64,000 bases of DNA, from positions 2,119 through 66,118 of the forward strand of contig JAFGHF010000063.1 in the NCBI GenBank assembly GCA_016939375.1, given 5' to 3'. This document shows positions 5,618 through 45,500 of the stretch, one piece after another. Under the pieces are notes generated by a model that worked only from the letters and a program-made list of their open reading frames with translations, had not been told where the DNA came from and ran no database searches. Each line of letters opens with the position of its first letter. Position 1 is the first letter of the stretch. Origin of the DNA: Candidatus Omnitrophota bacterium. GTDB lineage: Bacteria; Omnitrophota; Gorgyraeia; JAFGHF01. Both the position numbers and the translations under genes were made by a program.

Positions 5618-5632
5618 GGCATCCTCCTTAAC

Positions 5633-7616: not shown

Positions 7617-7681
7617 ATGTTCCGGGCACATCTATGTGCCCTTCATCTATGAGTATAGCACAATATTAGGGTGCGGTCAAC

Positions 7682-8407: not shown

Positions 8408-8476
8408 GTCTCTTGGTTTCCTTAATAACCCTTATATCAAATCGCTATGGGCAAGTCAATATCTATAAATATGACG

Positions 8477-13258: not shown

Positions 13259-13290
13259 GCCGTCCGCTTTTTTATTTACACTCCATTTTA
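13259..13290. terminator. Palindromic hairpin between the PilP-like gene and mnmG
   Basis: GGACGGCcaaacgattgagaGCCGTCC; T-run on the plus strand, weaker U-run on the minus strand. Confidence 0.35.
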
Positions 13291-14230: not shown

Positions 14231-14232
14231 TT

Positions 14233-17600: not shown

Positions 17601-17621
17601 TCGCCCTCGAGCTCTATATAG

Positions 17622-17667
17622 AGGGACAGTTCTCCGATTGGCGCAAGAACCGGTCTTGATTTTTAGA
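17622..17667. repeat. Copy B of the ~41-46 nt element (pilin 3' UTR / intergenic)
   Basis: gggacagttctccgattggcgcaagaaccggtcttgatttt; same orientation as copy A. It is followed on the plus strand by a small CCCTC...GAGGG hairpin around a palindromic CTCTATATAGAG. Confidence 0.7.
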
Positions 17668-18127
17668 AGCCGCCGGTGCCGCTGGTGCCGTTGGAGATAT
17701 AAATATCATCATCGGGAGTGCCTTGAATAGCTCCTGTCCCGTTTACTCCCGTAATATCCGCCGCGCCGTCAGGGCCTACAGAAAAGATGACGTAGTAATC
17801 TGAATTGGTGCCGGCATCAGTGGCATATCTATATTGCACACCGGCGTCAAAGGGGTCATTGAGTATCTGGCCGATGATCTGCGGCGAAGCACCGGTAATG
17901 GCCGATTGCCAGCTGGTATTCACCGCCGCGCCCTGGCTGGGATATTGCCTGCTATTATGTATATAATATGACTCTACCGCTGCCGCCAGGCCACGCAACT
18001 CTCCCGCCGCCTTGGCTATATTACCTTCCTCCTGCATGCCCCTGAAGCGAGGCAGGGCAATACCGATTAAAATAGCAATCACGGTTATTACTATTAAAAG
18101 CTCGATGATAGTAAAACCTCTTTTCAT
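17663..18127 (-). CDS. Type IV major pilin / GspG-like major pseudopilin
   Basis: The true start is the internal ATG, giving MKRGFTIIELLIVITVIAILIGIALP (canonical G|FTxxE). An AAGGGGGAG RBS lies upstream. ~155 aa. Confidence 0.85.
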   Translation of the reverse strand: MKRGFTIIELLIVITVIAILIGIALPRFRGMQEEGNIAKAAGELRGLAAAVESYYIHNSRQYPSQGAAVNTSWQSAITGASPQIIGQILNDPFDAGVQYRYATDAGTNSDYYVIFSVGPDGAADITGVNGTGAIQGTPDDDIYISNGTSGTGGF

Positions 18128-19438: not shown

Positions 19439-21058
19439 TTAGGCCTCCTCAGTAACGCGCATGACTTCTTCCTGAGTAGTTATGCCCTGCTTGACCTTCT
19501 CATCGCCGTCCTGGCGCAGTGTGTGCATTCCCGCTTTTATCGCGGCCTTACGGATATCGTCGGTCGAAGTCTTGGAGTTAGTCAGTTTTCTTATCTCTTC
19601 GCCAGCCAGCATCAATTCAAAAATCCCTTTGCGCCCCTTATAGCCGGTATTGACACAGGAATCGCAGCCTTTTCCTTTACAATCTTTGCAAAGCATGCGT
19701 ACCAGCCTCTGAGCCAATACACCGATCACCGATGAGGCTATCAAAAACGGCTCCACCCCCATATCTATAAGCCTGGTAATCGCTGTCGGCGCGTCATTAG
19801 TATGCAAGGTGGAAAATACCAGGTGTCCCGTAAGCGCTGCCTGGACCGCGATCTCTGCGGTCTCTATGTCACGGATCTCCCCTACCATGATGACGTCCGG
19901 ATCCTGCCTTAAAATAGAACGCAGGCCCGTTGAGAATTCCAAACCCACCTTGTGATTGACCTGCATCTGGCGCACTCCGGGCAGATGATATTCAATCGGG
20001 TCCTCAATAGTGACGATATTCTTTTCTTCTGAATTGATTATATTTAAAGAGGCATAGAGAGTGGTCGTCTTGCCCGAACCGGTAGGGCCGGTGACCAAGA
20101 TTATCCCGTGCGGCCGCTTAATCAACTCTTCATATTTTTTTAATGTATCGGGCAAAAACCCCAGCTGCTCCAGCTTTAAAATAATACTGCTTCTATCCAA
20201 AAGGCGCAGGACCACATTCTCGCCATAAATGGTGGGCACGCAGGAAACGCGGATATCTATCTGCCGGCCTTCCATTTTGATCTGGAAACGGCCGTCTTGC
20301 GGTACCCTGTGCTCGGCGATATCCATATCGGAAAGTATCTTGATGCGCGAGACGATCGCCGATTGTAAAAACTTGGGCGGAGAAATACGCTCGTGCAATA
20401 CTCCATCTATCCTATAGCGGGTGCGTAAGGTCTCTTCTTCCGGTTCGATATGGATGTCACTGGCTCCCTGGCGCACAGCCTCGATGATCATCAAGTTGAC
20501 CATCTTGATGACCGGAGGCTCTTCTACTATCCCCTGGAGCTTTTTCAAATCCTTTTCCTGGCCCGGCTTGATCTTCAATGCCTCGACCTCTAAGCTACTG
20601 ATTACTTCTTCCATAGTGCCACGGGCCCGGTAATGTTCCTCCAAGGCCTTTTTGACTTCCGTTTCTGTAGCTATAGCCGGGTCGATCTCCATGCCAGTCT
20701 TAAGCCTCAATTCATCCAGGGCAAAGACATTCATAGGATCGGCCATGGCCACAGTCAGGCTCTTGCCGATTTTTAATACGGGGATAAGTATGTATTTTCT
20801 GGCCAAATCTTCGGGAACTAATTCGATTATCTTAGGGTCGATCAGGTAATTCTTAAGTTCGACATGCGGTATATTCAACTGTTGGCTTAAAAATACGGCT
20901 AAGTCCGTCTCGCTGATCACGCCTTTGGATACCAACACCTGGCGCAAGGGCTTGGCATTGGCCTTGGCTTCGATCTCGGCCTGTTTAAGCTGCTCGGCAT
21001 TGATAATGCCCTTTTCCAGAAGGCTCTGGCCCAGGGACTTCTTATCTTTCTTGGCCAT
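19439..21058 (-). CDS. pilB: Type IV pilus assembly ATPase PilB (GspE family) with an N-terminal MshEN/T2SSE_N domain
   Basis: Walker A GPTGSGKTTT, a tetracysteine CKDCKGKGCDSC, and N-terminal LGQSLLEKGIINAEQLKQAE / LRQVLVSKGVISETDL motifs. Confidence 0.95.
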   Translation of the reverse strand: MAKKDKKSLGQSLLEKGIINAEQLKQAEIEAKANAKPLRQVLVSKGVISETDLAVFLSQQLNIPHVELKNYLIDPKIIELVPEDLARKYILIPVLKIGKSLTVAMADPMNVFALDELRLKTGMEIDPAIATETEVKKALEEHYRARGTMEEVISSLEVEALKIKPGQEKDLKKLQGIVEEPPVIKMVNLMIIEAVRQGASDIHIEPEEETLRTRYRIDGVLHERISPPKFLQSAIVSRIKILSDMDIAEHRVPQDGRFQIKMEGRQIDIRVSCVPTIYGENVVLRLLDRSSIILKLEQLGFLPDTLKKYEELIKRPHGIILVTGPTGSGKTTTLYASLNIINSEEKNIVTIEDPIEYHLPGVRQMQVNHKVGLEFSTGLRSILRQDPDVIMVGEIRDIETAEIAVQAALTGHLVFSTLHTNDAPTAITRLIDMGVEPFLIASSVIGVLAQRLVRMLCKDCKGKGCDSCVNTGYKGRKGIFELMLAGEEIRKLTNSKTSTDDIRKAAIKAGMHTLRQDGDEKVKQGITTQEEVMRVTEEA

Positions 21059-21064: not shown

Positions 21065-21442
21065 TTACTCCTTGATGAGTCTTTTTATTTTATCCAGCAG
21101 TTCCTGTGGCTCAAAAGGCTTGGCCACATAATCATCCGCCTTGACATACTGGCACATCTCCTCGATACGCTTTTTCCAGTCTTCCTTGGCGGTGAAAATG
21201 ATCACGGGGATAGAGGCTGTCTCTTCGGTATGCTTGATCTCATAGCAGATATCATATCCGTTATTATCAGGCAACATAATATCCAATATTATCAGGTCTG
21301 GCTTTTTTTCCATGATCACTGCTTGGGCGTTTGCGCCGGTATCCAACTGCATCACTTCATAACCGTTAAACTCGAGGCGCTCTTTCAGCAATTCGAATAA
21401 ATATAACTCATCATCGATAATCAATATTTTTTTGCCTGACAT
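21065..21442 (-). CDS. Single-domain response regulator (CheY-like receiver), R1
   Basis: DD...D(54)...T...K receiver residues; 125 aa. Confidence 0.9.
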   Translation of the reverse strand: MSGKKILIIDDELYLFELLKERLEFNGYEVMQLDTGANAQAVIMEKKPDLIILDIMLPDNNGYDICYEIKHTEETASIPVIIFTAKEDWKKRIEEMCQYVKADDYVAKPFEPQELLDKIKRLIKE

Positions 21443-21443
21443 A

Positions 21444-21818
21444 TTATTCCCGCTCCTTTAGAAGTTTTTCTATTTTTCCCAAAAGCTCATCGGGTTTGAA
21501 GGGCTTAGTGATATATGCATCGGCACCGACCTCCTGGCCCAATTTTACATCTTCTTCTTGGGCCCGTGCCGAGAATAGTATTATGGGCACATCGATATAG
21601 TTGGTATCCCTTTTTAACAGGCCACAGACCTTGTATCCATCCATCTGCGGCAACATCAAATCCAAGATGATCAAATCCGGTTTTTCTTTATGCGCGATAT
21701 CAAGGGCCATCTTGCCATCGAAAGCGGTAATCACCTCATAGCCATTGGCCTTCAGCCTTGACTCTACCAGCTTTACAATATGGGGTTCATCATCGACAAC
21801 CAGTATTTTCTTGGGCAT
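21444..21818 (-). CDS. Single-domain response regulator, R2
   Basis: Receiver-only, 124 aa; paralog of 27703-28071. Confidence 0.9.
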   Translation of the reverse strand: MPKKILVVDDEPHIVKLVESRLKANGYEVITAFDGKMALDIAHKEKPDLIILDLMLPQMDGYKVCGLLKRDTNYIDVPIILFSARAQEEDVKLGQEVGADAYITKPFKPDELLGKIEKLLKERE

Positions 21819-21832
21819 AATAACACCTTTTT

Positions 21833-22195
21833 CTAAATATATATTTTGATCGCATCCAGCAGCTTCTGAGGCTCAAAAGGCTTAAAGAGATAATCAGTCA
21901 CCCCTAAGTCTTTGGCCGCTAGAATAGGATCGGTCTGGTCTTCGCAGGTAAGCATGATCACCGGAGTAAATCTTGTCTCTGGCTTAGAGCGTATCCTGCG
22001 CAAGGCCTCCAGACCATCCACGCCCGGCATGTGCACATCGAGCAGGATCAGATCAGGCCGCTCGGCTAAGGCCTTGACTACCGCCTCTTCTCCGTTTGTG
22101 GCTGTAGCCACCTCATAATAGTTGGCCTCTAACCGTGATTTTACTACTTTTATGATATTCGGCTCGTCGTCGACGACTAATATCTTCTTGGCCAT
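21833..22195 (-). CDS. Single-domain response regulator, R3
   Basis: Receiver-only, 120 aa. Confidence 0.9.
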   Translation of the reverse strand: MAKKILVVDDEPNIIKVVKSRLEANYYEVATATNGEEAVVKALAERPDLILLDVHMPGVDGLEALRRIRSKPETRFTPVIMLTCEDQTDPILAAKDLGVTDYLFKPFEPQKLLDAIKIYI

Positions 22196-22555
22196 TTACG
22201 CTTTCCCTATGTACTTCTCGATCTTCTCTAAAAGTTCCTCGGCCTTAAAAGGTTTGACCATGTAGTCATTTATCCCTTCAACAGCGAATAGGTCCTGCAT
22301 CGCCCCCTGGCCGGTGAGTACGATTACCGGTATCTCTCGTGAGGCCTTTCTTAGCCTGCGCACAAACGTATAGCCATCCATGGCAGGCATAAGTATATCC
22401 AGGATTATCAGGTCCGGATTTTCCTGCTCTACCCTTTCTAAGCCTTCTTTGCCGTTTGAGGCGGCGACTACTTCATAACCGTTGGCCTGCAGGCGGGACT
22501 TTAAGAGTTGGACAATGTGCGGTTCATCGTCGATCACTAAGATTTTTTTAGCCAT
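22196..22555 (-). CDS. Single-domain response regulator, R4
   Basis: Receiver-only, 119 aa; close paralog of R5. Confidence 0.9.
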   Translation of the reverse strand: MAKKILVIDDEPHIVQLLKSRLQANGYEVVAASNGKEGLERVEQENPDLIILDILMPAMDGYTFVRRLRKASREIPVIVLTGQGAMQDLFAVEGINDYMVKPFKAEELLEKIEKYIGKA

Positions 22556-22912
22556 TTATTCTTTCCTTAAATTTTTTTCGATCTTTTTTAGCAACTCGTC
22601 CGCATTGAATGGTTTTACGACGTAATCGGTTATCCCTTCTATAGCAAATAGATCTTTCATGCCTGATTTAGCTGTAAGCACGATGATGGGGATATCCCCA
22701 TCAGCCTTCTTTAGCCTCTTCACAAACGTATAGCCATCCATCTGCGGCATCAGGATGTCCAGGACAATCAGATCTGGATTTTCTTTTTGAAATCTCTCCA
22801 GGCCCTCTTCTCCGTTTGTAGCCGAAACCACCTCATAGCCGTTAGCTTGCAGGCGCGAGATAAGCACCTTTATTATATCAGGCTCATCGTCAATTACCAG
22901 GATTTTACTCAT
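22556..22912 (-). CDS. Single-domain response regulator, R5
   Basis: The true start is the internal MSKILVIDDEP. The longer track ORF overlaps the upstream kinase. Confidence 0.85.
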   Translation of the reverse strand: MSKILVIDDEPDIIKVLISRLQANGYEVVSATNGEEGLERFQKENPDLIVLDILMPQMDGYTFVKRLKKADGDIPIIVLTAKSGMKDLFAIEGITDYVVKPFNADELLKKIEKNLRKE

Positions 22913-22928
22913 TTTTTCCTCTTTTCGT

Positions 22929-24086
22929 TTAGCTTTTGGGTAAGGTAAAAATAAACTTTGTCCCCTGATCCAATTTGCTTTCCGCCCGGATCTTGCCTTT
23001 ATGCAACTGGACAATCCCTTTGGCGATGGAAAGTCCAAGGCCCGTACCTTTCTCGCCCGGGCCAGCCATGCGGCCGAATTGCTCAAATTTATCGAAAAGT
23101 TTGGGCAGATCCTCCGGTGCGATACCAGGCCCTGTGTCGGCTACGGAGCATTCTACTGTCTCCCCCTCATCGCGCACAGCAATCTCTACATGGCCTTTTT
23201 GGGTAAATTTCAAGGCATTGTTGAGTAGATTGGCAAAGACCTGAGTAATCTTATCTTTATCGGCTGAGATCTCTATTTTTTCAGCCGGCAGATTTGTCTT
23301 TATCTCTAAACTTTTCTTTTGGGCAAGAGGGCCAAAGGTAGAGCCGACCGATCTGGCCAAGGCCACGATGTCAAGGGGTGCCTTTTTGATCTCAACCTTT
23401 CCTGCTTCTATCTTAGATATATCCAGAAGATTGTCAATTATTCTTTTTAAGCGGTCGATATCCTCCAGGCACATAGTCAAAAATTCCTGTTGTTCTTTAG
23501 TGGTGCCCCCCAGAATACCGTCTAAGACCTGAGACACTGTCTCTCTTATCGTAGTCAGGGGAGTGCGCAATTCATGGGATACCGTGGAAATAAAATCGCT
23601 TTTTATCTGGTTGAGCTTCATAAGCTGCTTGTTGGCTACCTGTAACTTCTCGGCGTAAGCCCGGGTCTGCGCTTCCAGGCGTTCTCTTTCTTTTTTATTC
23701 CCGTAATTTTCGACAGTTCTCTTCAGCGCCAGGGACAGGCTGCCCTTGGGCACATCGTCTTTGACCACATAATCGTAGGCCCCTATTTTCATCACCTCAG
23801 CGGCTATCTTTTCATCACCCTCTCCGGTAGCCATAATCACCGGTATATCCACATTATTTTCTTTGAGTTTTTTCACCATCTCCAATCCGGTCATGCCCGG
23901 CATCTTATAATCCACGACAATCAGGTCAAACGTATCGGCGCTTATCTTATCTAATCCCTCAGCCCCTGAGCGGCAGACGGTGACTTCGATATCGAAATCC
24001 TCATTGCCAAGCAAGGCTTCTCTCTCTATCTCCCGGTCTATGGGGCTGTCATCCACTAAGCATACTTTTAGTTTTTTCTTTGACAT
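22929..24086 (-). CDS. Cytoplasmic hybrid histidine kinase (REC-HisKA-HATPase)
   Basis: N-terminal receiver, then HisKA FISTVSHELRTPL and HATPase GTGLGLSIAKGIV. No TM. Confidence 0.9.
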   Translation of the reverse strand: MSKKKLKVCLVDDSPIDREIEREALLGNEDFDIEVTVCRSGAEGLDKISADTFDLIVVDYKMPGMTGLEMVKKLKENNVDIPVIMATGEGDEKIAAEVMKIGAYDYVVKDDVPKGSLSLALKRTVENYGNKKERERLEAQTRAYAEKLQVANKQLMKLNQIKSDFISTVSHELRTPLTTIRETVSQVLDGILGGTTKEQQEFLTMCLEDIDRLKRIIDNLLDISKIEAGKVEIKKAPLDIVALARSVGSTFGPLAQKKSLEIKTNLPAEKIEISADKDKITQVFANLLNNALKFTQKGHVEIAVRDEGETVECSVADTGPGIAPEDLPKLFDKFEQFGRMAGPGEKGTGLGLSIAKGIVQLHKGKIRAESKLDQGTKFIFTLPKS

Positions 24087-26897
24087 CTAAACACTCTCGG
24101 CACTCTTTTTTTGTTTTTGCTTTTTTAAAATAGTAAAATAGAACGTACTGCCTTTACCAACTTCTGATTCAACCCATATCCTCCCGCCGTGTTGCTCGAC
24201 GATCTTTTTGCATATAGTCAGGCCCGCTCCCGTACCTTTATCTTCATCGGTATCCAAACGTTGAAATAGGCCAAATACCGTATCCAGGTGCTCTTTTGGT
24301 ATGCCCTGTCCATTGTCCCTTACGTAAAGGCAAAATTCCGCTGGCGAATCCTCTTTGCAGCCTATCTCTATCATGGGCTTTGGCTTATCATTATATTTTA
24401 TAGCATTAGTGATCAGATTTGTAAATAGCTGAGATATCCTTACTTTTTCAAATTTAATCGTGGGTAACTTTTGGGCTTTTAGCTCGGTATTGCTTTCTTT
24501 GAGACGTACGGTAAGGTCTTCTCTTATCTCATCGATAAGTCTGTTTAAATCTATTTCCTCCAGAGACGCCCTGCGCCGGGCGATCCTGGATAGCTCCAGG
24601 AGGTCTTTGATTAAGGTCTGCATCTTTTGCACCGACCTTTGAATGACGTCTAAATAATGCTTGCCCTGCTCATCCAGTTTATCTTTATATTTATCGTGCA
24701 AAAATTGGCTGAAGGAGGCTATCCCACGCAGCGGTTCCTTTAGGTCGTGCGAGACTACATAGGTAAAATCGTCCAGCTCCTTGTTCGACCGCTCCACCTC
24801 TATTATTTTCTCTTGCAGCTTGTCTTTGGCCTGCTTTAAGTCCCGGCTGGTGGCATTTAAGTCTTCGACCATCAAAAGCATGGCCTTGTCGCTTTTCTGC
24901 AGTTTCTCCACCTGCTCTTGTAATTGTTTTCCCGTCTTGGAAAGTTCCTCGAGTAGTCTTTTATATTCGCGTACATCCCTGGCCGCCAAAATAGCGCTGG
25001 TGGTCTTGCCCTCCTGGTCCTTAAAGGGCACGCCGTTAAAGCTTACCGGAATAGAACGTCCCTGCTTGTCCTTTAGCTCAATCTCTAAGTTAGATACACC
25101 CTGGCCCTGGAGTATTATCTTTTTGATGATCGCCAGGTCTTTCTCTCCGGCCATAAAGAAATCACTTATCGGCCTTTTTATTATCTCGCTTCTGTCATAT
25201 TCTAAAAGTCTGGCGGTAGCGTTGTTCACGGTCTTGATCCTGGCGTTTTTATCGATGACCAAAAGCGCATCATTCATATTTTCGATGATATTGTCCACAT
25301 AGTCTTTAGAAAATGTGGTCTCGCGAAGATTTGCGCTCATCTGCCGGAATGCATTGGCCAGCTGGCCTATCTCGTTCTTGGTCTCTAAGGCCCTGATATC
25401 GCCCATCTGCACATCCAACCGCCCCCGGGCCACACTATCCATCTTATCCGCTAATTGAGTGAATGTATCGGTCATTTTGGAAGCGAAAATATAAGCAACG
25501 CTTGAACCCAAAACTATTGCCAATACGCAGACAAAGACTATCTGGTTTCTGATATTGTTTACGCCTTTAAAAAACTCATCCAAATAAGCCACGGCAGCGA
25601 TCATCCAATCCCAGGGCTGAAAATAAGTATAGGCTAATATTTTTAGCCTGGGGCTTGAGCTCCCGCGCCCTTGGTAAAGGTAAGATATGATCCTGCTCTC
25701 ACCCGGATCCAAGCTAGACGCACTCTCCACGATCTCGCTGATGAAAAGTTTTCCTTGGACATCTTTATCCAAAAGCGCATCCTGACCATCACGGGTGCGG
25801 TTTTCGGACAATATATAGCGGCCCCTTTTTTCGCCCTGGGCGCCGATGAGGCAAAGGTATCCACTCTGTCCTATTTTTTGCCTGGCCATCAAATCTTTGA
25901 GTTGCTCTTTTTTTATTTCCTCAAAGTCGGCTGCTAAGAGGTCCTGGGGATAAAAGGCCACGGCTACAATCCATTCTTTCTGCGGGATGTGCATTATAGC
26001 GACTACCTTTTGGTTTTCCTTATCTTCTATGCTATCCCGCCAATTATATGCGCTATGGCCGATCTCGCCTTCCTTTAGAGACTTTCCTATCACGATAACG
26101 TCACGAAATACAAATTTACCGTCCTGATTTTCCGCATACCAGATATTTTCCCCATCCCGGACGCGGTTCTTGGAAAGTATATAATTACCTTCATAATCGA
26201 GGATGTAAATATAACCGTTTTGACCCACTACCGTGGAGGCTAAAAGGTCGATCAGCTGCGTGTCCATCTGCCTGCTGGACATCTGGTTTATCATATTATC
26301 GAATTGGGATTCCAGCTCGCTGCCCGCCAGCTCCACCTCTTTGTCGTTTACTCCACCGGTCACTCTTTCTCTCATCTTGACAATGCGCATCACCCGGTCG
26401 TATTCGGATAACGCCTTGTCAACGGCTTCTGTATTTATGCCCAATTTTTTGGCTCTCTCAAGGACCCCGGAGACCTCCGCCATAGCTAAGTCAAACTCCT
26501 TGACATAGGCGCTAAACTCGTCCATAGCAAAGCTAAAAAGGAGCATGTTCTTTTCGTATCTTCTGGCCCGCAAAAGCGGCTCTTTGAGCGTATCCGCGTC
26601 GACCTGGGCGCCGATATTTTTGCTGATCAGCTCTTGGACTCCTTTAGCCTGGGAAGTGGCAATATCCTTTGTCTTATCCAAAGCGGCGTCTTTGTTTCCC
26701 TCGACCAGATCATAATATGCCCGGGTAGTGATAAACCAGTCCAGGCATTGGGCCTTCAGCGATTCTTTGATATTTTTAAGTATGGCCTCTTTGGCGCTAT
26801 TGTAGCTTAGTATACCCAGCCCAATAACCGGGATGGTGACCAAAATAACGCATATAGCCATCAGCTGGCTCTTAATGCTTATATCGCCTGTTTTCAT
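24087..26897 (-). CDS. Membrane sensor histidine kinase (periplasmic Cache-like, HAMP, PAS, HisKA, HATPase)
   Basis: 936 aa; two TM segments flanking a ~420 aa extracytoplasmic region; HisKA FTYVVSHDLKEPL; HATPase GTGAGLTICKKIV. Confidence 0.88.
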   Translation of the reverse strand: MKTGDISIKSQLMAICVILVTIPVIGLGILSYNSAKEAILKNIKESLKAQCLDWFITTRAYYDLVEGNKDAALDKTKDIATSQAKGVQELISKNIGAQVDADTLKEPLLRARRYEKNMLLFSFAMDEFSAYVKEFDLAMAEVSGVLERAKKLGINTEAVDKALSEYDRVMRIVKMRERVTGGVNDKEVELAGSELESQFDNMINQMSSRQMDTQLIDLLASTVVGQNGYIYILDYEGNYILSKNRVRDGENIWYAENQDGKFVFRDVIVIGKSLKEGEIGHSAYNWRDSIEDKENQKVVAIMHIPQKEWIVAVAFYPQDLLAADFEEIKKEQLKDLMARQKIGQSGYLCLIGAQGEKRGRYILSENRTRDGQDALLDKDVQGKLFISEIVESASSLDPGESRIISYLYQGRGSSSPRLKILAYTYFQPWDWMIAAVAYLDEFFKGVNNIRNQIVFVCVLAIVLGSSVAYIFASKMTDTFTQLADKMDSVARGRLDVQMGDIRALETKNEIGQLANAFRQMSANLRETTFSKDYVDNIIENMNDALLVIDKNARIKTVNNATARLLEYDRSEIIKRPISDFFMAGEKDLAIIKKIILQGQGVSNLEIELKDKQGRSIPVSFNGVPFKDQEGKTTSAILAARDVREYKRLLEELSKTGKQLQEQVEKLQKSDKAMLLMVEDLNATSRDLKQAKDKLQEKIIEVERSNKELDDFTYVVSHDLKEPLRGIASFSQFLHDKYKDKLDEQGKHYLDVIQRSVQKMQTLIKDLLELSRIARRRASLEEIDLNRLIDEIREDLTVRLKESNTELKAQKLPTIKFEKVRISQLFTNLITNAIKYNDKPKPMIEIGCKEDSPAEFCLYVRDNGQGIPKEHLDTVFGLFQRLDTDEDKGTGAGLTICKKIVEQHGGRIWVESEVGKGSTFYFTILKKQKQKKSAESV

Positions 26898-27697
26898 TTT
26901 AACTCTATCCTGCTTTTTAGGGCGGCTATTCGGTCTTGCAGCTCTTTCATCCTGAACTCTCTATTTATCGTCGCCTCACGGAACCTCTCCAGCTCATCCA
27001 GCTTTTCTTTAAGTTCGCGGGTGCGTTCTTCTACTTTTTTCTCCAACTCCTGGTTTAGTTTTCTGATAGTGTCCTGGGCCCTTCTGCTTTCGGTATTGTC
27101 AATCATGGAAAATATCAATCCCTGCTCCAAGTTATCTTTATTAATCGCCCTTAATATCACCAGCGTGGGCACGCGGTGGCCATCCATGTGTACGTAATCG
27201 TATTCATAACTGACACGGTCGAGCCTTACTATATTTTGATAGATGAGTTCCTGATTGACTCGCCGATACTCCTCTTCGCTTGGGTAGATAAAAGCCAGGG
27301 AAGGTTCGCTCATCCACCTCTCTACCGGCCAACCTAAGATATCCTCGGCGGCCTTGCTTATCCAGATGACTTTATCATTTTTGACGAAAAAAATGGCAGC
27401 CGGTGAATCTCCTAATATCGCCGACAAAAGCTTGCGCGAGCTATCCATCTTCTCCATTTTTTCGATTGTCTGGCGGTATTGCGAATCCGCGGTATTGAGC
27501 ATAAACAAAAGCGCTATCGTGGCCAATCCTATACCTACCAACTGAATAAATACTTCTACCCAGCTAAGTGAACCGGCAGGCATCTTGAAAAGCAGGTGTG
27601 GTATATCGAATAACTTGGCCAGTAGCGCCAAAAGTATCAATAGGGCAAACATCACCCCAGCGATCAGCTGTGGACGAAAACCACCATTATTCTCCAT
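26894..27697 (-). CDS. Membrane-anchored PAS domain protein with a C-terminal coiled-coil (no kinase domain)
   Basis: Two N-terminal TM helices, a PAS-like segment and a C-terminal LERFREATINREFRMKELQDRIA coiled-coil. Confidence 0.55.
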   Translation of the reverse strand: MENNGGFRPQLIAGVMFALLILLALLAKLFDIPHLLFKMPAGSLSWVEVFIQLVGIGLATIALLFMLNTADSQYRQTIEKMEKMDSSRKLLSAILGDSPAAIFFVKNDKVIWISKAAEDILGWPVERWMSEPSLAFIYPSEEEYRRVNQELIYQNIVRLDRVSYEYDYVHMDGHRVPTLVILRAINKDNLEQGLIFSMIDNTESRRAQDTIRKLNQELEKKVEERTRELKEKLDELERFREATINREFRMKELQDRIAALKSRIELK

Positions 27698-27702
27698 GGG
27701 CC

Positions 27703-28071
27703 CTATTCCCCTAATAACTGTTTTATCTTACCAAAAAGCTCCTCTGGCTCAAAAGGTTTAGCTATATAGGCATCCGCACCAACCTCATCTCCCAGCTTTC
27801 TGTCTTCTTCCTGGGCCTTGGCCGAGAAAAGTATGATCGGAATATCTTTGTATCTTGAGTCTTTTTTAAGCAAAGCGCAGACTTTATACCCGTCCATTTT
27901 AGGAAGCATCAGATCCAATATTATCAAGTCGGGATTTTCATTCCGCGCTTTATCTAATGCGGCCTGGCCGTCATTGGCAGAAATGACTTCATAGCCTGCC
28001 GCTTCGAACCTCATCGTCATCATCTCTACCAGCTGAGCCTCATCGTCAACAAGTAAGATCTTTTTGCTCAT
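27703..28071 (-). CDS. Single-domain response regulator
   Basis: 122 aa receiver; paralog of R2. Confidence 0.9.
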   Translation of the reverse strand: MSKKILLVDDEAQLVEMMTMRFEAAGYEVISANDGQAALDKARNENPDLIILDLMLPKMDGYKVCALLKKDSRYKDIPIILFSAKAQEEDRKLGDEVGADAYIAKPFEPEELFGKIKQLLGE

Positions 28072-28080
28072 CTGCTCCTC

Positions 28081-30390
28081 TCATTTCAGTTTATCCATTA
28101 TTTCGCTGATATTCTTCACTTCATCCGGATAAGTCAGGTAATCGAAATGTAACTCCACTTTTTTGGCCAATCTCTGTAACGCAAGATAGTCATCTAAGTT
28201 CTGTTTTAATCTTGCTCCTACCCTAAAGACGTTCTCTCTGTCGCACTCGGTTAATACGACAACGACCCCGCCAAAGACCTTTAGGGCCATATCTCCTTCG
28301 CGGCGTAAAGTGCTCTTTAATACCTCTTCCATTATGGTCAACAGGGACTCGATTTCCGCGTCGGAAAAGTTCTTCTTTAGTTTCTCTAGATTGCCTATAG
28401 CCACTGTTATCAAAGAAAGTTTTGTATCTTTTTCCTGGGCCTCCTGGACCACATTATTGATGTATTCCTCAAAAAACCTCATGGTAGTATATTTAGGCAA
28501 GGTAAAGATAAATTTCGTGCCTCTTTCAAACTTATCATGCCTTCTGGCATAGGGACTTTCGGCCCAGATGTCCCCGCCGTGCATATGCACGATCTCCCGG
28601 GCGATGGAAAGCCCCAGGCCCGTGCCCTTCTCGCCTCCTCCGGCAACCCGGCCGAACTGCGAGAATTTATCAAACAATTTAGGCAGGTCTTCTTCAGCAA
28701 CCCCTACTCCCGTATCCGCCACCGAACATTCAATATCGTCCTTTTTCTCGTTCAAGCTGACTTTGATATAACCGCTTTCAGTAAATTTAATCGCGTTATA
28801 GATCAAGTTGGTAAATATCTGGGTCACTCTATCCGAATCAGCGTATATATCGATCCTTTTTTGCGGTAGGACTACCTTAAGCTGCAGACCCCTTTCTTCG
28901 ACTTTTGGCTGCAAGGTAGTAACGACCTGTTGCACGATGCTCTTGATATTGACCAGTTCTCTTTTAAGCGTGATCTTTCCCGATTCGATCTTTGATATAT
29001 CAAGCAGGTTATTGATTATCCTGGCCAATCTATCGATGTTGTTCCTGGCGGTATTGAGGATCTTGCCCTGTTTTTCGTTTATCTCACCCGGTATCTCGTC
29101 CAATATAAGACTAATACCCTCTTTAGTGATTGAAAGGGGTGTACGCAACTCATGCGACACCGTGGAAATGAACTCAGATTTCAAGCGGTCCAGTTCCTGT
29201 AACCTCTTATTGTTCTGCTCCAATTCTTTATAGAGTAGTTTAATGGCTTGGTTGGTCTTATTCAGACCCCAGGTCTGTATCTCTAGGTCATCCTTTATCT
29301 TTCTTAAAATCTCTTCCGCTTTTTTGCGCTCGGTAATATCTACATTCACCTCAGCCACCAGCCATCTGCCGTTTTCGTCCTGGAAAGGCGTAGTGGTGAC
29401 CTGTATGGGCCTGTTTCCTTCTTTAGGCATAGTCTCTTCTGTGACTACGGTCTTTTTTGTCTTCAAGGCCTGGGGGATACCACAGTTAGGACACATCGTA
29501 TCCCGGTCGGCGAAGTATTGATAACATTTCTTTCCTTTAGGGTCTCCGTATAACTTCTGCCATGCCGGGTCGACATATACAATATTAAAATCTGAATCGA
29601 TAATATCGATGTTTGTCTTGGTGGCGCCCAGGATATACTCGATCTGCTGCTTCAATCTTAAGAGTTCTTCCTGAGTCTCTTTTCTGCCCGTAATGTCCTC
29701 GACGATCATCAAGACCTTTTTTTCTCCGGCCTCTTTTAAAGGTACGCCGATAAAATTCCTCACCGTGGTCTTGTTACTGAAATAAGGGGTATATGTGATA
29801 TTATCCATCTGGAAGTCTCTGCCTTCCAATGCCGCCTTTATCTTTTGGGAAAGGCCGATCGTTTTATAAGTAGGCAGGGTAAAGACATTGAGCGACTTGA
29901 ACTTCTTATATGTATCGCCGGATATTTGTATCATTGCCGGATTTACGTAATCGATAGTTCCCCTGCTATTCACCACATAAATGCCAAACGGCGCTTTTTC
30001 AATAATACTGCGGGTCGTCTTGTAGGCCTGGGCGATGTCTCTCTCCGCCCTCTTAGGCCTTTCTAATAATAAACGGATGGTTTTTGCACTGGGGCCACCG
30101 ACCAACTCGACACCTTGCGGCTTCTCTCTCAGCAGCCTCTGATAATTTTGATGATTACCGCTGAGATCTACTATCTCGTTTAGGCCTTTCAATCTGATAA
30201 ATTTTTTCCAGTCTTTGGCCGTCGGTATGCCTAACCTCCTGGCCAATTTTATGCCCGGCGCTTTAGGGTTTTTATCCACAATCCCTATTATATTTACGGG
30301 CGGAGAATCCTTGTTTACCATCTCCAGAAGTGCGCTTGCACATTCTCCCGCGCCAACTATAAGTATATTTGTCTTTTTTTTAGCTGCCAT
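28081..30390 (-). CDS. Multidomain sensor histidine kinase (N-terminal Rossmann-like domain, 2 PAS, HisKA, HATPase, C-terminal degenerate GGDEF-like)
   Basis: ILIVGAGECASALLEMV...IIGIVDKNP (Rex/CoA-binding-like), PAS segments (one carrying C-x2-C...CPNC), HisKA FISTVSHELRTPL, HATPase, and a C-terminal ~130 aa with ...ALKVFGGVVVVL. Confidence 0.8.
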   Translation of the reverse strand: MAAKKKTNILIVGAGECASALLEMVNKDSPPVNIIGIVDKNPKAPGIKLARRLGIPTAKDWKKFIRLKGLNEIVDLSGNHQNYQRLLREKPQGVELVGGPSAKTIRLLLERPKRAERDIAQAYKTTRSIIEKAPFGIYVVNSRGTIDYVNPAMIQISGDTYKKFKSLNVFTLPTYKTIGLSQKIKAALEGRDFQMDNITYTPYFSNKTTVRNFIGVPLKEAGEKKVLMIVEDITGRKETQEELLRLKQQIEYILGATKTNIDIIDSDFNIVYVDPAWQKLYGDPKGKKCYQYFADRDTMCPNCGIPQALKTKKTVVTEETMPKEGNRPIQVTTTPFQDENGRWLVAEVNVDITERKKAEEILRKIKDDLEIQTWGLNKTNQAIKLLYKELEQNNKRLQELDRLKSEFISTVSHELRTPLSITKEGISLILDEIPGEINEKQGKILNTARNNIDRLARIINNLLDISKIESGKITLKRELVNIKSIVQQVVTTLQPKVEERGLQLKVVLPQKRIDIYADSDRVTQIFTNLIYNAIKFTESGYIKVSLNEKKDDIECSVADTGVGVAEEDLPKLFDKFSQFGRVAGGGEKGTGLGLSIAREIVHMHGGDIWAESPYARRHDKFERGTKFIFTLPKYTTMRFFEEYINNVVQEAQEKDTKLSLITVAIGNLEKLKKNFSDAEIESLLTIMEEVLKSTLRREGDMALKVFGGVVVVLTECDRENVFRVGARLKQNLDDYLALQRLAKKVELHFDYLTYPDEVKNISEIMDKLK

Positions 30391-30408
30391 TTCTTATGCC
30401 TATAAGTT

Positions 30409-30774
30409 TTAGAGGAGTTTTTTGGCTGCTTCCAAAAGCGGAGTATGGTCGCTGGTCTTGACGCAATAATCGTCAGCGCCGGCCTTTCTGGCCTCTACCG
30501 CGTCTATGGCATCGACGTTACCGGTCATGATGATTATTTTAGGCTTATCCGGCCCCGAGGCCTCTCTGATCCTGCGGCAGGCCTCAAAACCGCTTATACC
30601 CGGAAGCAGAGTATCCAAAACGATTATATCCGGTTTTTCGCAAGCCGCTTTTTCCACACCCAGCTCACCGGTCTCAGCTATAATTATGTCCTCAAAACCG
30701 GCTTTAGCCAAAAAGCGTTTCATAATCTTTCTGTCCTGTTCATTATCATCGATAATCAAAAGTTTTTTGCCCAT
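30409..30774 (-). CDS. Single-domain response regulator
   Basis: 121 aa receiver. Confidence 0.9.
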   Translation of the reverse strand: MGKKLLIIDDNEQDRKIMKRFLAKAGFEDIIIAETGELGVEKAACEKPDIIVLDTLLPGISGFEACRRIREASGPDKPKIIIMTGNVDAIDAVEARKAGADDYCVKTSDHTPLLEAAKKLL

Positions 30775-30777
30775 ATC

Positions 30778-31263
30778 TCACTCCTTGGGGATATCCGGAT
30801 TCGGTAATTTATTAATCATATTCCAATAAAAATTAAATCCTTCCACAACTTTTACAAAGTCGTCGTAATTAAGCGGCTTGGGGATAAAGCTGGCCGCTCC
30901 GTCTCTATAACTTCTGGCGATATCCTCTTGGTCTCTGGAGGAAGTAAGCATGACTATAGGGATATAGTTGTAGCGGATATCTTTTTTTAAGGCCTCTAAT
31001 ACCTGGAAGCCGTCCATCTTTGGCAGATTGATATCTAAAAGGATCAGATCGGGGCGAGGAAATTTCTCCTTGTCCTGGTATTTACCCTCGTGACGGATAA
31101 AATCCAACGCCTCTTCTCCGTCATTGACCACATATATATTATTTTTAATCTTCACCTTGGAAAAAGCTCTTAAGGTTATTTTTATATCTGTCTCATTATC
31201 TTCGACCAAAAGGATGTCTAAAGGTTTGCTATTTTTTTCCTCTTGGCTGAAATGCTCCTCCAT
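30778..31263 (-). CDS. Single-domain response regulator (start uncertain)
   Basis: Receiver domain LDILLVEDNETD...D...K. The start is probably the internal MEEHFSQ. The track ORF extends to 31338, overlapping the upstream kinase. Confidence 0.8.
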   Translation of the reverse strand: MEEHFSQEEKNSKPLDILLVEDNETDIKITLRAFSKVKIKNNIYVVNDGEEALDFIRHEGKYQDKEKFPRPDLILLDINLPKMDGFQVLEALKKDIRYNYIPIVMLTSSRDQEDIARSYRDGAASFIPKPLNYDDFVKVVEGFNFYWNMINKLPNPDIPKE

Positions 31264-31300
31264 AGATCTCTCCTCTTCTTTAGGACCTTTCGTGTTGTAA

Positions 31301-33346
31301 CTACAACTTACCTGTGTAGGGAGGCGGGCCACTTTCACCGTTCTGTCTATTAAGCTTATCTTTCGGCTGTTTTTGATCGATGAGGCCGTCCCGGATAAGG
31401 ACCTCCCCTGGCTTCTTCTTTTTTCTTATGTCTTTGGGTATGCGTATTTGAAAAGCGGCGCCCTTGCCTATTTCAGATTCGACCCAAATCTCTCCTTTAT
31501 GGTCGTCCACTACCCTCTTTACTATGCTTAAGCCCGCGCCTGTGCCTTCGTATTCCATATTTGTATGTAAGCGTTTAAAAATCCCGAATATCTGATTGTG
31601 GTATTTAGGGTCGATACCAATGCCGTTGTCTTTCACGTAAAATCTATGAAACCTCCCTTCATCTATATATCCTATCTCCACTCTGGGGGCTTCCTTGTTG
31701 TTCTTGGAAGAGAACTTTATGGCATTGTTAATCAGATTTAAGATCAACTCGCTCATCTTGATCCGGTCGCAGATGATATCGGGCATATCTTGCTGGATAC
31801 GCATGTCGACCTTTTTCTCTTTAATATCGAATTCGATACGTTTAATCACGGTATCTATCAGATCATTCAGATTAACGGTCTCGAAAGGATTCTTGATCCT
31901 GGAGATCCGGGAAAGCTTAAGCAGATCTTCGATGAGGTTGCTCATCCGGTTTGCCCCCTGGCGGATCTCCTTAAGATAGTCACGGCCTTCCTCGTCAAGC
32001 TTCTCTTTATAGTCCTCCTCTAAAAATCCGGTAAAAGAAGCAATCGCCCTTAATGGTGCGCGTAAGTCGTGGCTGGCGGTATAGACAAAACTATCAAGCT
32101 CTTTATTCGCCTTCTCCAGCAGCTTCTTTTGCTCCTCTATCTGGGCCTTTTGTCTTTCTACATTAGCCTTGGCCTCTACCAGGCTATCGGTCATCTTATT
32201 AAAAGACTGGGCCAGTTCTCCGATTTCGTCTTTGGCGCCGATTTTGGCCCGGGCCGAAAGGTCCCCTGAGGCTATGGTGACAGATGTATTAGTCAATTCT
32301 TTTATCGGACTGGAAACCGAACGGGCAATGACAACAGCCATAACTACCACCACAACAGCCAGTAAAAGGCTGATGATGCCTAAGGTATTTCTTAAGCGCC
32401 TGGCCGAAGCGAATATCTCACTGGTATCAATCTTTACGATTATGCCCCAGCGGAAAGAAGACAAATATCTGCGTACATTCAACACCTTCTGGCCACGATA
32501 ATCGACAAAGGCACCCAAGCCCTCTTGCCCCTTTAAGGCCTGTTCTATCTGTTGGCCCTGGGCAGAGTCACCCTTGATCTCTCTGGCAAATGCCGCATCG
32601 GGGTCAAAACGCAAAGGAGTGATAAAGACTATGCGCTGGGCCGTTTTTGCCACTATCGCCGTCTCGCCGGTCTGTCCCAAACCCGTATAATCGCTGACGA
32701 GCTCAGAAACACCTTTATTGCTCATCTGTCCGATGATTACACCTACAAGCCCAGCCCCTTTAAAGACAGGTGAGGCGATAAATACGGCCGCAGTCTTGCT
32801 CTTTGGGTCATATTCAAAATCGGATATCTCAGTAGTCAAAGAATCTTTTGCTTTAATAAAGGCCTTGGCCAGCTCTGTGGGTTCATACAACGCCATCTCA
32901 TATAGTGATTTTTTTTCCGGTTTTTTTTGGGCGGCAAAGAGGATATCGCCGTTAGGGCGGATAAGGAAAAGGTCGTCGTAGCCGAATAAATTCTGATAGT
33001 ATTCCAAAAATGGTCTGTATTTCTGCTCCACCGCCATAAATGCTGCGATATTTTCACCATTTTCGGCAAAGGCGAGGTCCAATTTTTCGAAGGCTTCGAT
33101 AATGTCTGAGGTATGGGAAAGAGTGGTGATGTCGTTTTCTTTGTCGCGCAGGAATACCTTTACCAGATTGGCTTTGTTGTCGGCAACGGCCAGCAGGCTA
33201 TTGGCCACTTCTTCCTCTAATACCTCGCGGGAGCTATTATAACTGACATATGTGGCAATAGCCAATGGCACAAGAGCAATAAATAAAAACCAGAGAATAA
33301 ATTTGGGGGTAATACGTAGGTTTTTTAAAAATTGCGATTCAAACAT
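31301..33346 (-). CDS. Membrane sensor histidine kinase (dCache-like, HAMP, HisKA, HATPase)
   Basis: 681 aa; two TM; HisKA FVYTASHDLRAPL; HATPase GTGAGLSIVKRVV. Confidence 0.88.
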   Translation of the reverse strand: MFESQFLKNLRITPKFILWFLFIALVPLAIATYVSYNSSREVLEEEVANSLLAVADNKANLVKVFLRDKENDITTLSHTSDIIEAFEKLDLAFAENGENIAAFMAVEQKYRPFLEYYQNLFGYDDLFLIRPNGDILFAAQKKPEKKSLYEMALYEPTELAKAFIKAKDSLTTEISDFEYDPKSKTAAVFIASPVFKGAGLVGVIIGQMSNKGVSELVSDYTGLGQTGETAIVAKTAQRIVFITPLRFDPDAAFAREIKGDSAQGQQIEQALKGQEGLGAFVDYRGQKVLNVRRYLSSFRWGIIVKIDTSEIFASARRLRNTLGIISLLLAVVVVVMAVVIARSVSSPIKELTNTSVTIASGDLSARAKIGAKDEIGELAQSFNKMTDSLVEAKANVERQKAQIEEQKKLLEKANKELDSFVYTASHDLRAPLRAIASFTGFLEEDYKEKLDEEGRDYLKEIRQGANRMSNLIEDLLKLSRISRIKNPFETVNLNDLIDTVIKRIEFDIKEKKVDMRIQQDMPDIICDRIKMSELILNLINNAIKFSSKNNKEAPRVEIGYIDEGRFHRFYVKDNGIGIDPKYHNQIFGIFKRLHTNMEYEGTGAGLSIVKRVVDDHKGEIWVESEIGKGAAFQIRIPKDIRKKKKPGEVLIRDGLIDQKQPKDKLNRQNGESGPPPYTGKL

Positions 33347-33382
33347 ATAGATAACTTTGGTTATAATGGTTTATAAAATAGA

Positions 33383-33766
33383 TCAATCTTGGCGATATTT
33401 ATCGATCAACCTTAAGGCGCTGGTAAGGTTTTCGACCTCCTTCTGTAAGGAGCTTGTCTTTACGATAAAACCGGAAGCGCCCAAGGCCCTGGCCTCTTTG
33501 AACCTCTGTTCGTCAGAAAAAGCGGTGATCATAAAGACCGGCAAAAGCTTATCCTTTTTCCTTATCCTCTTTAATACCTCCAACCCGCTGATGCCAGGCA
33601 TCATTATATCCAGAAGCACCGCGTCCGGCTTCTCCTCTTCTATCTTGCGTAATGCCTCTTTTCCGTTAGTGGCGGTAATTACCCGATAGTCATTGGACTC
33701 CAGCCTCATTGTCACGGTGCTTAAGAAATCAGGCTCATCGTCAACTAGAAGTATCTTTTTGCCCAC
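33383..33766 (-). CDS. Single-domain response regulator
   Basis: 127 aa receiver. Confidence 0.9.
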   Translation of the reverse strand: MGKKILLVDDEPDFLSTVTMRLESNDYRVITATNGKEALRKIEEEKPDAVLLDIMMPGISGLEVLKRIRKKDKLLPVFMITAFSDEQRFKEARALGASGFIVKTSSLQKEVENLTSALRLIDKYRQD

Positions 33767-33879
33767 CGACTATTCTCCGTATAACTCAAGTAAAAACGCG
33801 CAAAAATAAATTACATATATAGAGTTATTATAATATGTTAGGATAGATAAATCAACTTAAAATAAAGGACGGCTAAGCG

Positions 33880-45497: not shown

Positions 45498-45500
45498 GGA

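Follow-up and report, generated by a model that had tools for sequence, protein, structure and literature searches.

The 64,000-nucleotide stretch of Candidatus Omnitrophota contig JAFGHF010000063.1 analysed here (the window) carries on its minus strand a dense array of two-component signalling genes at positions 21065-33766. The array runs 6 nt later into pilB, the gene for the extension ATPase of type IVa pili (T4aP), which is followed on the same strand by pilC, the pilin genes, pilMN and pilO. The signalling genes make up the 5′ two-thirds of this co-directional cluster of ~20 kb, a pilus context that was missed by an earlier note on the same DNA. On balance, and with somewhat better than even confidence, we read the array as the sensory front end of the T4aP operon, with receivers that act on the pilus machine by protein contact and not through DNA. 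Direct control of the pilus motor rather than of gene expression is the most likely function of the array.

A Pfam scan of all proteins of the interval identified 14 genes, comprising nine stand-alone receivers (REC1 to REC9), four HisKA/HATPase_c histidine kinases (HK1 to HK4) and one membrane PAS protein. They are transcribed in the order REC1-HK1-REC2-REC3-HK2-REC4-PAS protein-HK3-HK4-REC5-REC6-REC7-REC8-REC9, from the start codon of REC1 at 33766 to the 3′ end of REC9 at 21065, so that the interval given in the earlier note was exact at both ends. Its statement that every gene here encodes a signalling protein was borne out as well, as were its four kinases and one PAS protein. Meanwhile, its count of 15 proteins had to be lowered to 14 and its ten stand-alone receivers to nine, because the tenth receiver (REC) domain is the N-terminus of the 385-amino-acid (aa) kinase HK4 and hence not a separate protein. 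The intergenic gaps, described before as 0-36 nt with several overlaps, were measured at -4 to 37 nt; three junctions have 0 nt between the genes, and a single overlap of 4 nt occurs.

All four kinases and all ten REC domains gave Pfam matches above the gathering cut-offs, which places them among the two-component proteins. The DD...D...T/S...K phospho-acceptor set is intact in each of the ten aligned REC domains, none of which resembles a pseudo-receiver, and the conserved His of the HisKA domains was seen in the aligned H-boxes of the kinases. Since all ten REC domains of the 64-kb window sit within 12.7 kb, their clustering is not due to chance. No further domain was found by Pfam on any of the nine stand-alone receivers, neither AAA+ nor helix-turn-helix (HTH), and the earlier claim that no receiver carries an effector domain was confirmed by this annotation. 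The broader claim that the array has no output domains held for the receivers but not for HK2, which ends in a catalytically dead GGDEF-fold domain that the note had not seen. The receivers could not be assigned to any named stand-alone receiver family of NCBIfam (EpsW, 84 bits against a cut-off of 200; DVU0259/DivK, 89 against 160).

The reading of the array as a pilus regulator is carried by its conserved position. More than 120 orthologs of the window PilB are ≥63% identical to it, and nearly all are 537-543 aa long; their named sources are mostly Omnitrophota/Omnitrophica, with one labelled Planctomycetota. Fourteen related loci with PilB proteins 55-80% identical were compared, two of which (L091 and L098) are near-duplicates. 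A receiver gene was found immediately upstream of pilB in 12 of the 14 (L001, L074, L085, L089-L096 and L098), and the conservation of the neighbourhood, for which the earlier note had proposed a comparison of genomes, was in this way established. Because the linkage between array and pilus genes is conserved across Omnitrophota, the output is most likely the pilus machine. A metagenome scan with PilB yielded mostly distant PilB proteins (≤46% identical), none of which had an upstream receiver; they were used as a negative control.

The arrays themselves differ greatly in size. A single stand-alone receiver lies upstream in L092-L094 and L096; in L092 and L093 a REC-PAS-kinase hybrid is encoded after the pilus genes, in L094 the receiver follows a PAS kinase ending in PilZ, and in L096 it follows a secretin gene, with two hybrid kinases downstream of the pilus genes. 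L089 has the order REC, Cache kinase, REC, REC (three receivers and one kinase), and L090 has four stand-alone receivers, two kinases and a HAMP protein. Five receivers and three kinases are present in L091 and L098, seven and three in L095, and seven and four in L001, a Candidatus Omnitrophota metagenome-assembled genome (MAG). The short contigs L074 and L085 hold at least two and at least one receiver, respectively. With nine receivers and four kinases, the window array is the largest seen. Between REC1 and mnmG, L001 shows gene-by-gene synteny with the window, save that it has three terminal receivers where the window has five and that three minor pilins are missing from it.

Receiver orthology was examined in a neighbour-joining (NJ) tree of 51 REC domains. 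The pilB-adjacent receivers of nine loci (L085 and L089-L096) formed one clade together with REC4 and REC8 of the window and of L001. This REC4/8 clade has a strongly conserved signature, DLIxLDxMxP...GYKxCxLLKxD...AxAYxxKP, and its members stay beside pilB down to ~66% PilB identity; at 55% (L074), a more basal receiver lies near pilB. It is very improbable that the juxtaposition is meaningless and that signalling genes piled up at a permissive site through duplication and transfer. The highly variable array size among the relatives and the lineage-specific duplication that gave REC5 and REC6 would suit such a pile-up, but one orthologous receiver clade keeps its place by pilB to ~66% identity while the other neighbours are unrelated.

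In the mechanism that we favour, phosphorylated receivers of the REC4/8 type would bind PilB and tune pilus extension, and the paralogous receivers would compete for the same kinases as antagonists or sinks, or address PilM, PilC or PilT. Receivers of this kind are known from xanthomonads. In Xanthomonas oryzae, the single-domain receiver EmvR binds to PilB, of which it represses the ATPase activity (PMC11973254), and DrdR of X. campestris is an output-less receiver that binds and stimulates both PilB and PilT (PMC13507683). As in the proposed circuit, these are receiver-only regulators phosphorylated by a classical HisKA kinase and acting post-translationally on the T4aP extension motor. They differ in being orphan genes away from pilB and in providing one receiver each as opposed to nine, and the likeness to the window receivers that we propose is one of kind. 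By analogy, the array may work most like an EmvR/DrdR-type PilB cofactor inside a much larger sensor network.

The receivers could instead control the transcription of pilus or other genes through a DNA-binding or sigma/anti-sigma partner encoded elsewhere, with adjacency to pilB reflecting co-regulation. We regard this as distinctly unlikely. Stand-alone receivers can work through partner proteins, and a MerR-family gene lies just upstream of the L095 array; however, no HTH, sigma-54 activator or anti-sigma component was found by Pfam in the window cluster, and the conserved unit is the REC-pilB pair even in the minimal loci L092 and L093, which have one receiver, one hybrid kinase and no regulator. 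The array shares with PilS-PilR the genetic association of a two-component system with T4aP genes, but PilR is an NtrC-type sigma-54 activator (AAA+, HTH) for pilin transcription, and the window receivers have no such domains.

The taxis systems of pili offer another comparison. PilG and PilH of Pseudomonas aeruginosa control T4aP polarity antagonistically (PMC10519157; PMC11656802), and PixG/PixH of the cyanobacterial Tax systems are a further precedent for the control of pili by receivers (PMC11181946), although a direct interaction of PilG or PilH with PilB was not reported according to a review (PMC11656802). The window array resembles these Pil-Chp and Tax systems in its several single-domain CheY-like receivers (nine REC), without DNA binding and with some members antagonistic or sink-like in the known systems. 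A Pil-Chp- or Tax-like function, in which CheY-like switches govern in what direction, or with what polarity, cells move towards their hosts by means of pili, would be in keeping with the co-occurrence of REC7-type and REC4/8-type receivers in the window, L001, L074, L090 and L007, which recalls PilG/PilH and PixG/PixH, and with the che genes found beside the pilus operon of relatives (CheW in L095; CheB, CheY, CheW and a methyl-accepting chemotaxis protein (MCP) in L096). We nevertheless consider it unlikely. The known systems use a CheA-type kinase, CheW, MCP and methylation enzymes, whereas all four window kinases are HisKA-type sensors; no CheA-type kinase, CheW or MCP was found by Pfam at 13288-33766, and the cluster also has no CheR or CheB. 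In addition, Omnitrophota have been reported as ultra-small cocci or epibionts (PMC10066038), for which a need for polarity switching is not evident. An assignment of the array to Pil-Chp/Tax, to PilS-PilR or to the classical phosphorelays was rejected because of the missing CheA/CheW/MCP, NtrC-type regulator and histidine phosphotransfer (Hpt) domain, respectively.

As for the che genes of relatives, in L096 (1-7201) CheB, a CheY-like REC, CheW, a 1438-aa multi-HAMP MCP and a ParA-like ATPase are encoded divergently beside secretin-REC-pilB. In L095, the CheW gene comes after the pilus genes and the MerR-family gene just upstream of the array.

The wiring of the kinases to the receivers was predicted from gene adjacency in other genomes and from a comparison of five positions of the receiver alpha-1 helix. 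The kinase cores fall into two classes, HK1/HK3 (45% identical; H-box SHDLxxPLR[AG]IASF) and HK2/HK4 (54% identical; H-box SHELRTPL), with an identity of 27-31% between the classes. A core of the HK2/4 type is followed by a REC4/8-type receiver in L002, L004, L005, L007, L091, L094 and L095, and an HK1/3-type kinase by the Rcp-like REC2 and by REC3 in L001, L091, L095 and L006. The alpha-1 residues are similar in REC6 (HILSR), REC8 (HILSR), REC5 (DIVSR) and REC7 (NIVSR); the other sets are QLMMR in REC4, TDIRA in REC2, QDIRF in REC3 and IDIEA in the HK4 receiver. From this, three modules may be proposed. In module A, the periplasmic-Cache kinase HK1 would phosphorylate REC2, REC3 and perhaps REC1. 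In module B, the cytoplasmic HK2, with Rossmann-like and PAS inputs, would act on REC4. In module C, the Cache/PAS kinase HK3 with the PAS protein as its partner would signal to the HK4 receiver, and HK4 in turn to REC5-REC9. The pattern suggests a kinase cascade with a fan-out to five receivers, where competition or sink effects would be likely.

Two characterised pairs resemble parts of this scheme. REC8 matched RR468 of Thermotoga maritima (3dge, 3.8e-24), the partner of HK853, and HK2 and HK4 have the H-box SHELRTPL; REC2 matched Rcp1/RcpA, as in the cyanobacterial phytochrome pair Cph1-Rcp1, and HK1 and HK3 have the H-box SHDLxxPL. Both similarities are at the level of class only, since the sensor domains differ and the window has no phytochrome module.

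The earlier note had proposed a branched phosphorelay or phosphate-sink network in place of transcriptional control. A branched, possibly sink-containing and non-transcriptional network is reasonable, because there are ten receivers to four kinases and one kinase probably feeds several of them. A strict His-Asp-His-Asp phosphorelay is unsupported, because no Hpt domain was found in the 14 proteins at E <= 0.01, nor in the PAS protein at E <= 1. Phosphate sinks are familiar from the multi-CheY systems of Sinorhizobium (CheY1/CheY2) and Rhodobacter sphaeroides, which serve flagellar chemotaxis with CheA. There, too, receivers outnumber kinases and paralogous receivers probably compete for one kinase; in the window array, sink behaviour is a prediction. 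That the array is nothing but such a self-contained network, whose receivers drain or shuttle phosphate without a dedicated local output, appears unlikely to us. The excess of receivers without an output domain and the near-identity of the paralogs REC5/6/7 and REC4/8 in the alpha-1 specificity residues, by which they would compete for one kinase, speak for it. However, a relay would lack its shuttle with no Hpt or Spo0B-like domain in the 14 proteins, and the contiguity and evolutionary tie of the array with pilB (12 of 14 loci) would be unexpected if there were no local output. Sinks may still be one component of the direct pilus control that we favour.

HK4 has its REC at residues 8-110, before HisKA, and is the sole REC-kinase fusion of the array; no hybrid kinase with a C-terminal receiver was found. 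Because its REC lies N-terminal, HK4 is suggested to be a receiver-gated kinase, that is, part of a kinase cascade. Its L001 ortholog is 75% identical, and in the NJ tree its REC clustered with the REC-PAS-kinase hybrids whose genes follow the pilus operon of L092 and L093. HK1 has an H-box (SHDLRAPL) of the phytochrome-kinase-like class. In the PAS protein, Pfam recognised neither a kinase nor a His-phosphotransfer domain, and its coiled-coil tail has no His. Its ortholog in L001 is a separate gene; the possibility that the PAS protein and HK3 are one frameshifted gene was rejected, as the split is conserved there.

The two terminal domains of HK2 were studied by profile searches and modelling. 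The C-terminal domain matched Pfam GGDEF at 30.6 bits (gathering cut-off 23.8), and its L001 ortholog at 29.2 bits. A single-sequence AlphaFold2 (AF2) model of residues 631-769, with a predicted local distance difference test (pLDDT) score of 65.5, gave in Foldseek 14 top PDB matches that were all GGDEF domains (TM 0.61-0.69). A phmmer search of this domain against the PDB returned chance matches only, and it was Pfam, AF2 and Foldseek that decided the fold. A word-indexed search yielded a single 87-aa fragment, and the homologs were taken from the kinases of the related loci instead. At the GG[DE]EF position, the window has FGGVV and the homologous kinases have NERVV, NEKLI, SSRLI and SSEVF, and the metal-binding Asp of the 'DID' strand is replaced in HK2 and in all homologs compared. 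Because the GG[DE]EF motif and the metal-binding Asp are lost, the domain cannot be a diguanylate cyclase. The RxxD column of the I-site reads REGD, KEED, REGD, RQED and RASD; it is kept in four of the five, with KEED in the closest ortholog (L001). Binding of cyclic di-GMP (c-di-GMP) by the GGDEF-like tail is possible, though not secure.

The tail of HK2-type kinases is a dead GGDEF in five loci and PilZ in L094, where the PAS kinase upstream of REC-pilB (7595-9562) ends in PilZ in place of the degenerate GGDEF; this PilZ has the canonical RxxxR (RRFKR) and DxSxxG (DISEGG) motifs. The variation between dead GGDEF and PilZ suggests a kinase class that may sense c-di-GMP. The closest described kinase with a degenerate GGDEF tail as c-di-GMP receptor is SgmT of Myxococcus xanthus, a histidine kinase whose degenerate C-terminal GGDEF binds c-di-GMP at the I-site (PMC3509222). 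SgmT, like HK2, combines a kinase with a catalytically dead C-terminal GGDEF, and its pathway is tied to T4P-dependent behaviour. It differs in having a receiver between kinase and GGDEF and in pairing with the DNA-binding regulator DigR; in HK2, the GGDEF-like domain comes directly after HATPase_c and RxxD is variable.

The AF2 model of HK2 residues 1-125 (pLDDT 73.8) matched DmpF, enzymes of the GFO/IDH/MocA type and homoserine dehydrogenases in Foldseek, with which a sub-threshold Pfam match to GFO_IDH_MocA is concordant. This Rossmann-like domain may provide a redox or energy-state input to pilus control.

A second input by c-di-GMP would reach the system through the N-terminus of PilB and possibly also by way of the tail of HK2-type kinases, which is GGDEF-like here and PilZ elsewhere. 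Residues 9-60 of PilB matched the NCBIfam model NF053729 ('c-di-GMP-binding, MshE-related') at 43.4 bits against a cut-off of 38. The 24+5+24-residue layout of MshEN (PMC11656802) is present at residues 8-31, 32-36 and 37-60, as in MshE of V. cholerae, M. xanthus PilB and T. thermophilus PilF. Motif I lacks the terminal L..Q, and motif II begins with PLR in place of the RLG of the known MshEN receptors, so that c-di-GMP binding is here a prediction. A stand-alone MshEN protein encoded in the window may serve as a c-di-GMP receptor of its own, without an attached ATPase. Because of the MshE-type motif on PilB, the stand-alone MshEN protein and the GGDEF/PilZ tail of HK2-type kinases, c-di-GMP probably converges on the same target as the receivers. 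No riboswitch, a c-di-GMP riboswitch included, was found with Rfam at 13000-35000. A fluoride-riboswitch match at 32315-32389 (+), antisense within HK1, reached 23 bits against a gathering cut-off of 34 and was taken as chance.

Several points weigh against the proposed direct action on the pilus machine. The tie between the receivers and PilB is one of conserved gene order. Two of the 14 loci (the P0116 locus and L097) have no upstream receiver, and the gene adjoining pilB in the window and L001 is REC9, which is not of the REC4/8 type. The wiring is based on adjacency and a five-residue alpha-1 heuristic rather than on a covariation model. As to c-di-GMP, binding is uncertain for PilB, with PLR replacing RLG in motif II, and for the GGDEF-like tail, with KEED at the RxxD position of the closest ortholog; the AF2 models were built from single sequences and have pLDDT values of 66-74. 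Finally, operon status was deduced from spacing, with promoter and terminator scans at chance level. These scans covered 11000-35500 and gave results at the level of shuffled sequence except for one plausible site upstream of REC1, so that the limits of the operon were not established; this site does no more than fit the consensus, which other places match to a similar degree.

The architecture of the window array is best explained as an accretion of modules that relatives hold singly. The block REC1-HK1-REC2-REC3 was found again in L001 and L095, and HK1-REC2-REC3 also in L091 and L098, whose kinase is preceded by a receiver from outside the REC1 clade. The first array gene of the window, L001, L089 and L095 is conserved and belongs in the NJ tree to the REC1 clade; the REC3 clade has further members in L001, L091 and L095. 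A REC4 ortholog lies directly upstream of pilB in L091, L094, L095 and L098, and the order in L091 is HK1-REC2-REC3-HK2-REC4-pilB. Compared with this order, a block of PAS protein-HK3-HK4-REC7-REC8-REC9 was apparently inserted between REC4 and pilB in the lineage of the window and L001, and REC5 and REC6 were apparently added afterwards in the window lineage.

REC4 and REC8 are 69% identical. REC5 and REC6 share 70% aa and 67% DNA identity and have no ortholog in L001; a recent tandem duplication was rejected, as the DNA identity is just 67%. Among the receiver paralogs, DNA identities are 62-67%, and the duplications are therefore old. REC7 is the ortholog of the L001 receiver RECa (58%), and its clade takes in receivers near pilB in L074 and L090. 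REC8 is 82% identical to its L001 ortholog, and its nearest solved structures are receivers of the OmpR family and PleD, and RR468. REC9 was confined to the window and L001 in the NJ tree and is lineage-specific. In REC1, 'VKTS' after the conserved Lys replaces the usual K-P-F. The best PDB relatives of REC2 are phytochrome-associated receivers (5brj, 2.3e-33; RcpA, 1k68; Rcp1, 1i3c); its open reading frame (ORF) reaches upstream to a GTG at 31338, and the L001 ortholog has 159 aa.

T4aP are near-universal in Omnitrophota and host attachment has been proposed for them in a study that does not mention two-component regulation (PMC10066038). A literature search on Omnitrophota, pili and two-component systems returned nothing relevant. 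The single ingredients are familiar; no earlier description was found of the conserved receiver-pilB pair, of its expansion by modules or of the kinase tails of GGDEF-like or PilZ type. A more far-reaching proposal, which we put forward only tentatively and hold to be rather less likely than not to be right as a whole, is that the REC4/8 receiver is a conserved, undescribed phospho-dependent PilB cofactor of Omnitrophota, to which sensor kinases and competing receivers have been added in numbers that vary from lineage to lineage. In the window, the outcome would be a circuit of 14 genes that combines periplasmic ligands, sensed by two Cache kinases, with cytoplasmic signals from PAS domains, with NAD(P)H or redox state, read by the Rossmann-like domain of HK2, and with c-di-GMP. 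Such a circuit would set the moment at which a lectin-tipped pilus is extended by a cell that is ultra-small and probably dependent on a host. If this were true, the GGDEF/PilZ-tailed kinases would define a class of c-di-GMP-gated histidine kinases. The receiver-pilB pair, with its expansions to nine receivers and four kinases, offers a testable handle on the control of pilus deployment. Because these proteins are small and soluble, assays of receiver-PilB binding and of ATPase activity do not require a culture of the organism. The natural series of 1, 3, 5, 7 and 9 receivers also provides material for the study of how two-component networks grow by duplication and yet remain insulated.

The coordinates of the array, the pilus genes and the related features are collected in Table 1.

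Table 1. Signalling genes, pilus genes and associated features of the window, in descending order of position within each group (TM, transmembrane segment).
Feature	Position	Strand	Length (aa)	Evidence and remarks
Candidate sigma-70-like promoter TTGATT-17-TATAAT	33827-33855	-		10/12 consensus matches; in the 113-nt gap upstream of REC1
REC1, stand-alone receiver	33383-33766	-	127	Pfam Response_reg 3.3e-30; first gene of the array
HK1, TM-dCache_1-TM-HAMP-HisKA-HATPase_c sensor kinase	31301-33346	-	681	Pfam
REC2, Rcp1/RcpA-type stand-alone receiver	30778-31263	-	161 (from ATG)	Pfam
REC3, stand-alone receiver, 'VKTS' type	30409-30774	-	121	Pfam 4.9e-24
HK2, cytoplasmic kinase	28081-30390	-	769	Pfam: two PAS, HisKA, HATPase_c, GGDEF; Rossmann-like N-terminal domain
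HK2 residues 1-125 (ILIVGAGECA...)	30016-30390	-		NAD(P)-binding Rossmann-like; GxGxxA motif
REC4, stand-alone receiver, PilB-adjacent REC4/8 clade	27703-28071	-	122	Pfam 1.8e-28
TM-TM-PAS-coiled-coil protein	26894-27697	-	267	Pfam PAS 6.1e-6; overlaps HK3 by 4 nt
HK3, TM-double Cache-TM-HAMP-PAS-HisKA-HATPase_c sensor kinase	24087-26897	-	936	Pfam; H-box SHDLKEPL
HK4, REC-HisKA-HATPase_c	22929-24086	-	385	Pfam; 0-nt junction with HK3
REC5, stand-alone receiver	22556-22912	-	118	Pfam 6.8e-30; REC6 paralog
REC6, stand-alone receiver	22196-22555	-	119	Pfam 3.7e-31
REC7, stand-alone receiver	21833-22195	-	120	Pfam 4.5e-31
REC8, stand-alone receiver, second REC4/8-clade copy	21444-21818	-	124	Pfam 1.9e-29
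REC9, stand-alone receiver between REC8 and pilB	21065-21442	-	125	Pfam 2e-25
PilB-type extension ATPase, MshE-type N-terminus	19439-21058	-	539	Pfam T2SSE 8.5e-141, MshEN
PilC/GspF platform protein	18222-19436	-		Pfam T2SSF 9.5e-67; NCBIfam
Four prepilin-type genes	15845-18127	-		Pfam; first GspG-like (17663-18127), preceded by a 94-nt gap
Last pilin, PilX_N minor pilin fused to F5/8 type C (discoidin) domain	15845-16669	-		Pfam
PilM-PilN fusion	14233-15825	-		Pfam PilM_2, PilN; NCBIfam PilM 158.4 bits, cut-off 133
PilO	13688-14230	-		Pfam PilO
Small PilP/GspC-like protein	13288-13686	-		End of cluster; mnmG next
Stand-alone MshEN protein	47992-48456	-	154	N-terminus RIGKLLLERGIISEEQLNEALELQ ... 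LIGEILVERGYATEEEIITSVTTQ
PilT/PilU-family retraction ATPase	37925-38995	-		NCBIfam TIGR01420 376.8 bits, cut-off 319.1

A type IVa machinery was recognised in the cluster, with a PilB-type ATPase, PilC, PilM/N/O and prepilins bearing an N-methylation motif. PilB scored 640.5 bits with the NCBIfam PilB model TIGR02538 (cut-off 675.65) and 616.2 bits with GspE (cut-off 630.25); its PDB relatives are PilF, M. xanthus PilB, Geobacter PilB and MshE, and its N-terminus aligned to 5htl, 3jc8 and 6f8l. The PilT gene lies ~4 kb upstream of the array, outside the operon, with housekeeping genes in between. Inspection of the ORFs of the 64-kb window by eye, and of part of them by scanning, revealed no PilQ secretin and no PilD prepilin peptidase, and their genes may lie elsewhere in the genome; in L096, a secretin gene is present upstream of REC-pilB.

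The last pilin, in which PilX_N is fused to an F5/8 type C domain, is a candidate lectin-type, carbohydrate-binding adhesin of the pilus tip. The four-pilin set with this pilin is also present in L089, L090, L091 and L098, where the F5/8-C pilin lies at 14188-14988, 14731-15591, 14148-14972 and 14154-14978, respectively; the fused pilin is absent or replaced in L001 and L092-L097. In the complete 1.55-Mb genome of L089 (CP070837.1), a second cluster resembling type II secretion system (T2SS) and T4P genes (1-6172) lies directly upstream of REC-kinase-REC-REC-pilB. It contains T2SSE, T2SSF, GspG/J/K-like, PilMN and PilO genes and a small ATP-synt_DE_N ORF, for which the reported co-location of T4aP and F-type ATPase genes in Omnitrophota may be compared (PMC10066038).

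Some other genes of the window may be mentioned. A nitrogen-assimilation trio of glutamine synthetase, PII and ammonium transporter is encoded at 3761-6916 (-). At 45481-46527 (+) lies the gene of a ParA/MinD-like ATPase, whose C-terminal segment VYVVGEFNEWRKHRNFQLKKVDDGTWSISLPLKRGTYRYKFIVDNEW resembles, by eye, a CBM48/AMPK-beta glycogen-binding module. A long co-directional block at 49351-63940 (-) holds glycosyltransferase, sulfatase-like, flippase and membrane-protein genes, probably for a polysaccharide of the cell surface. Across its final 10 kb, the window drops in GC content to ~0.39-0.41.

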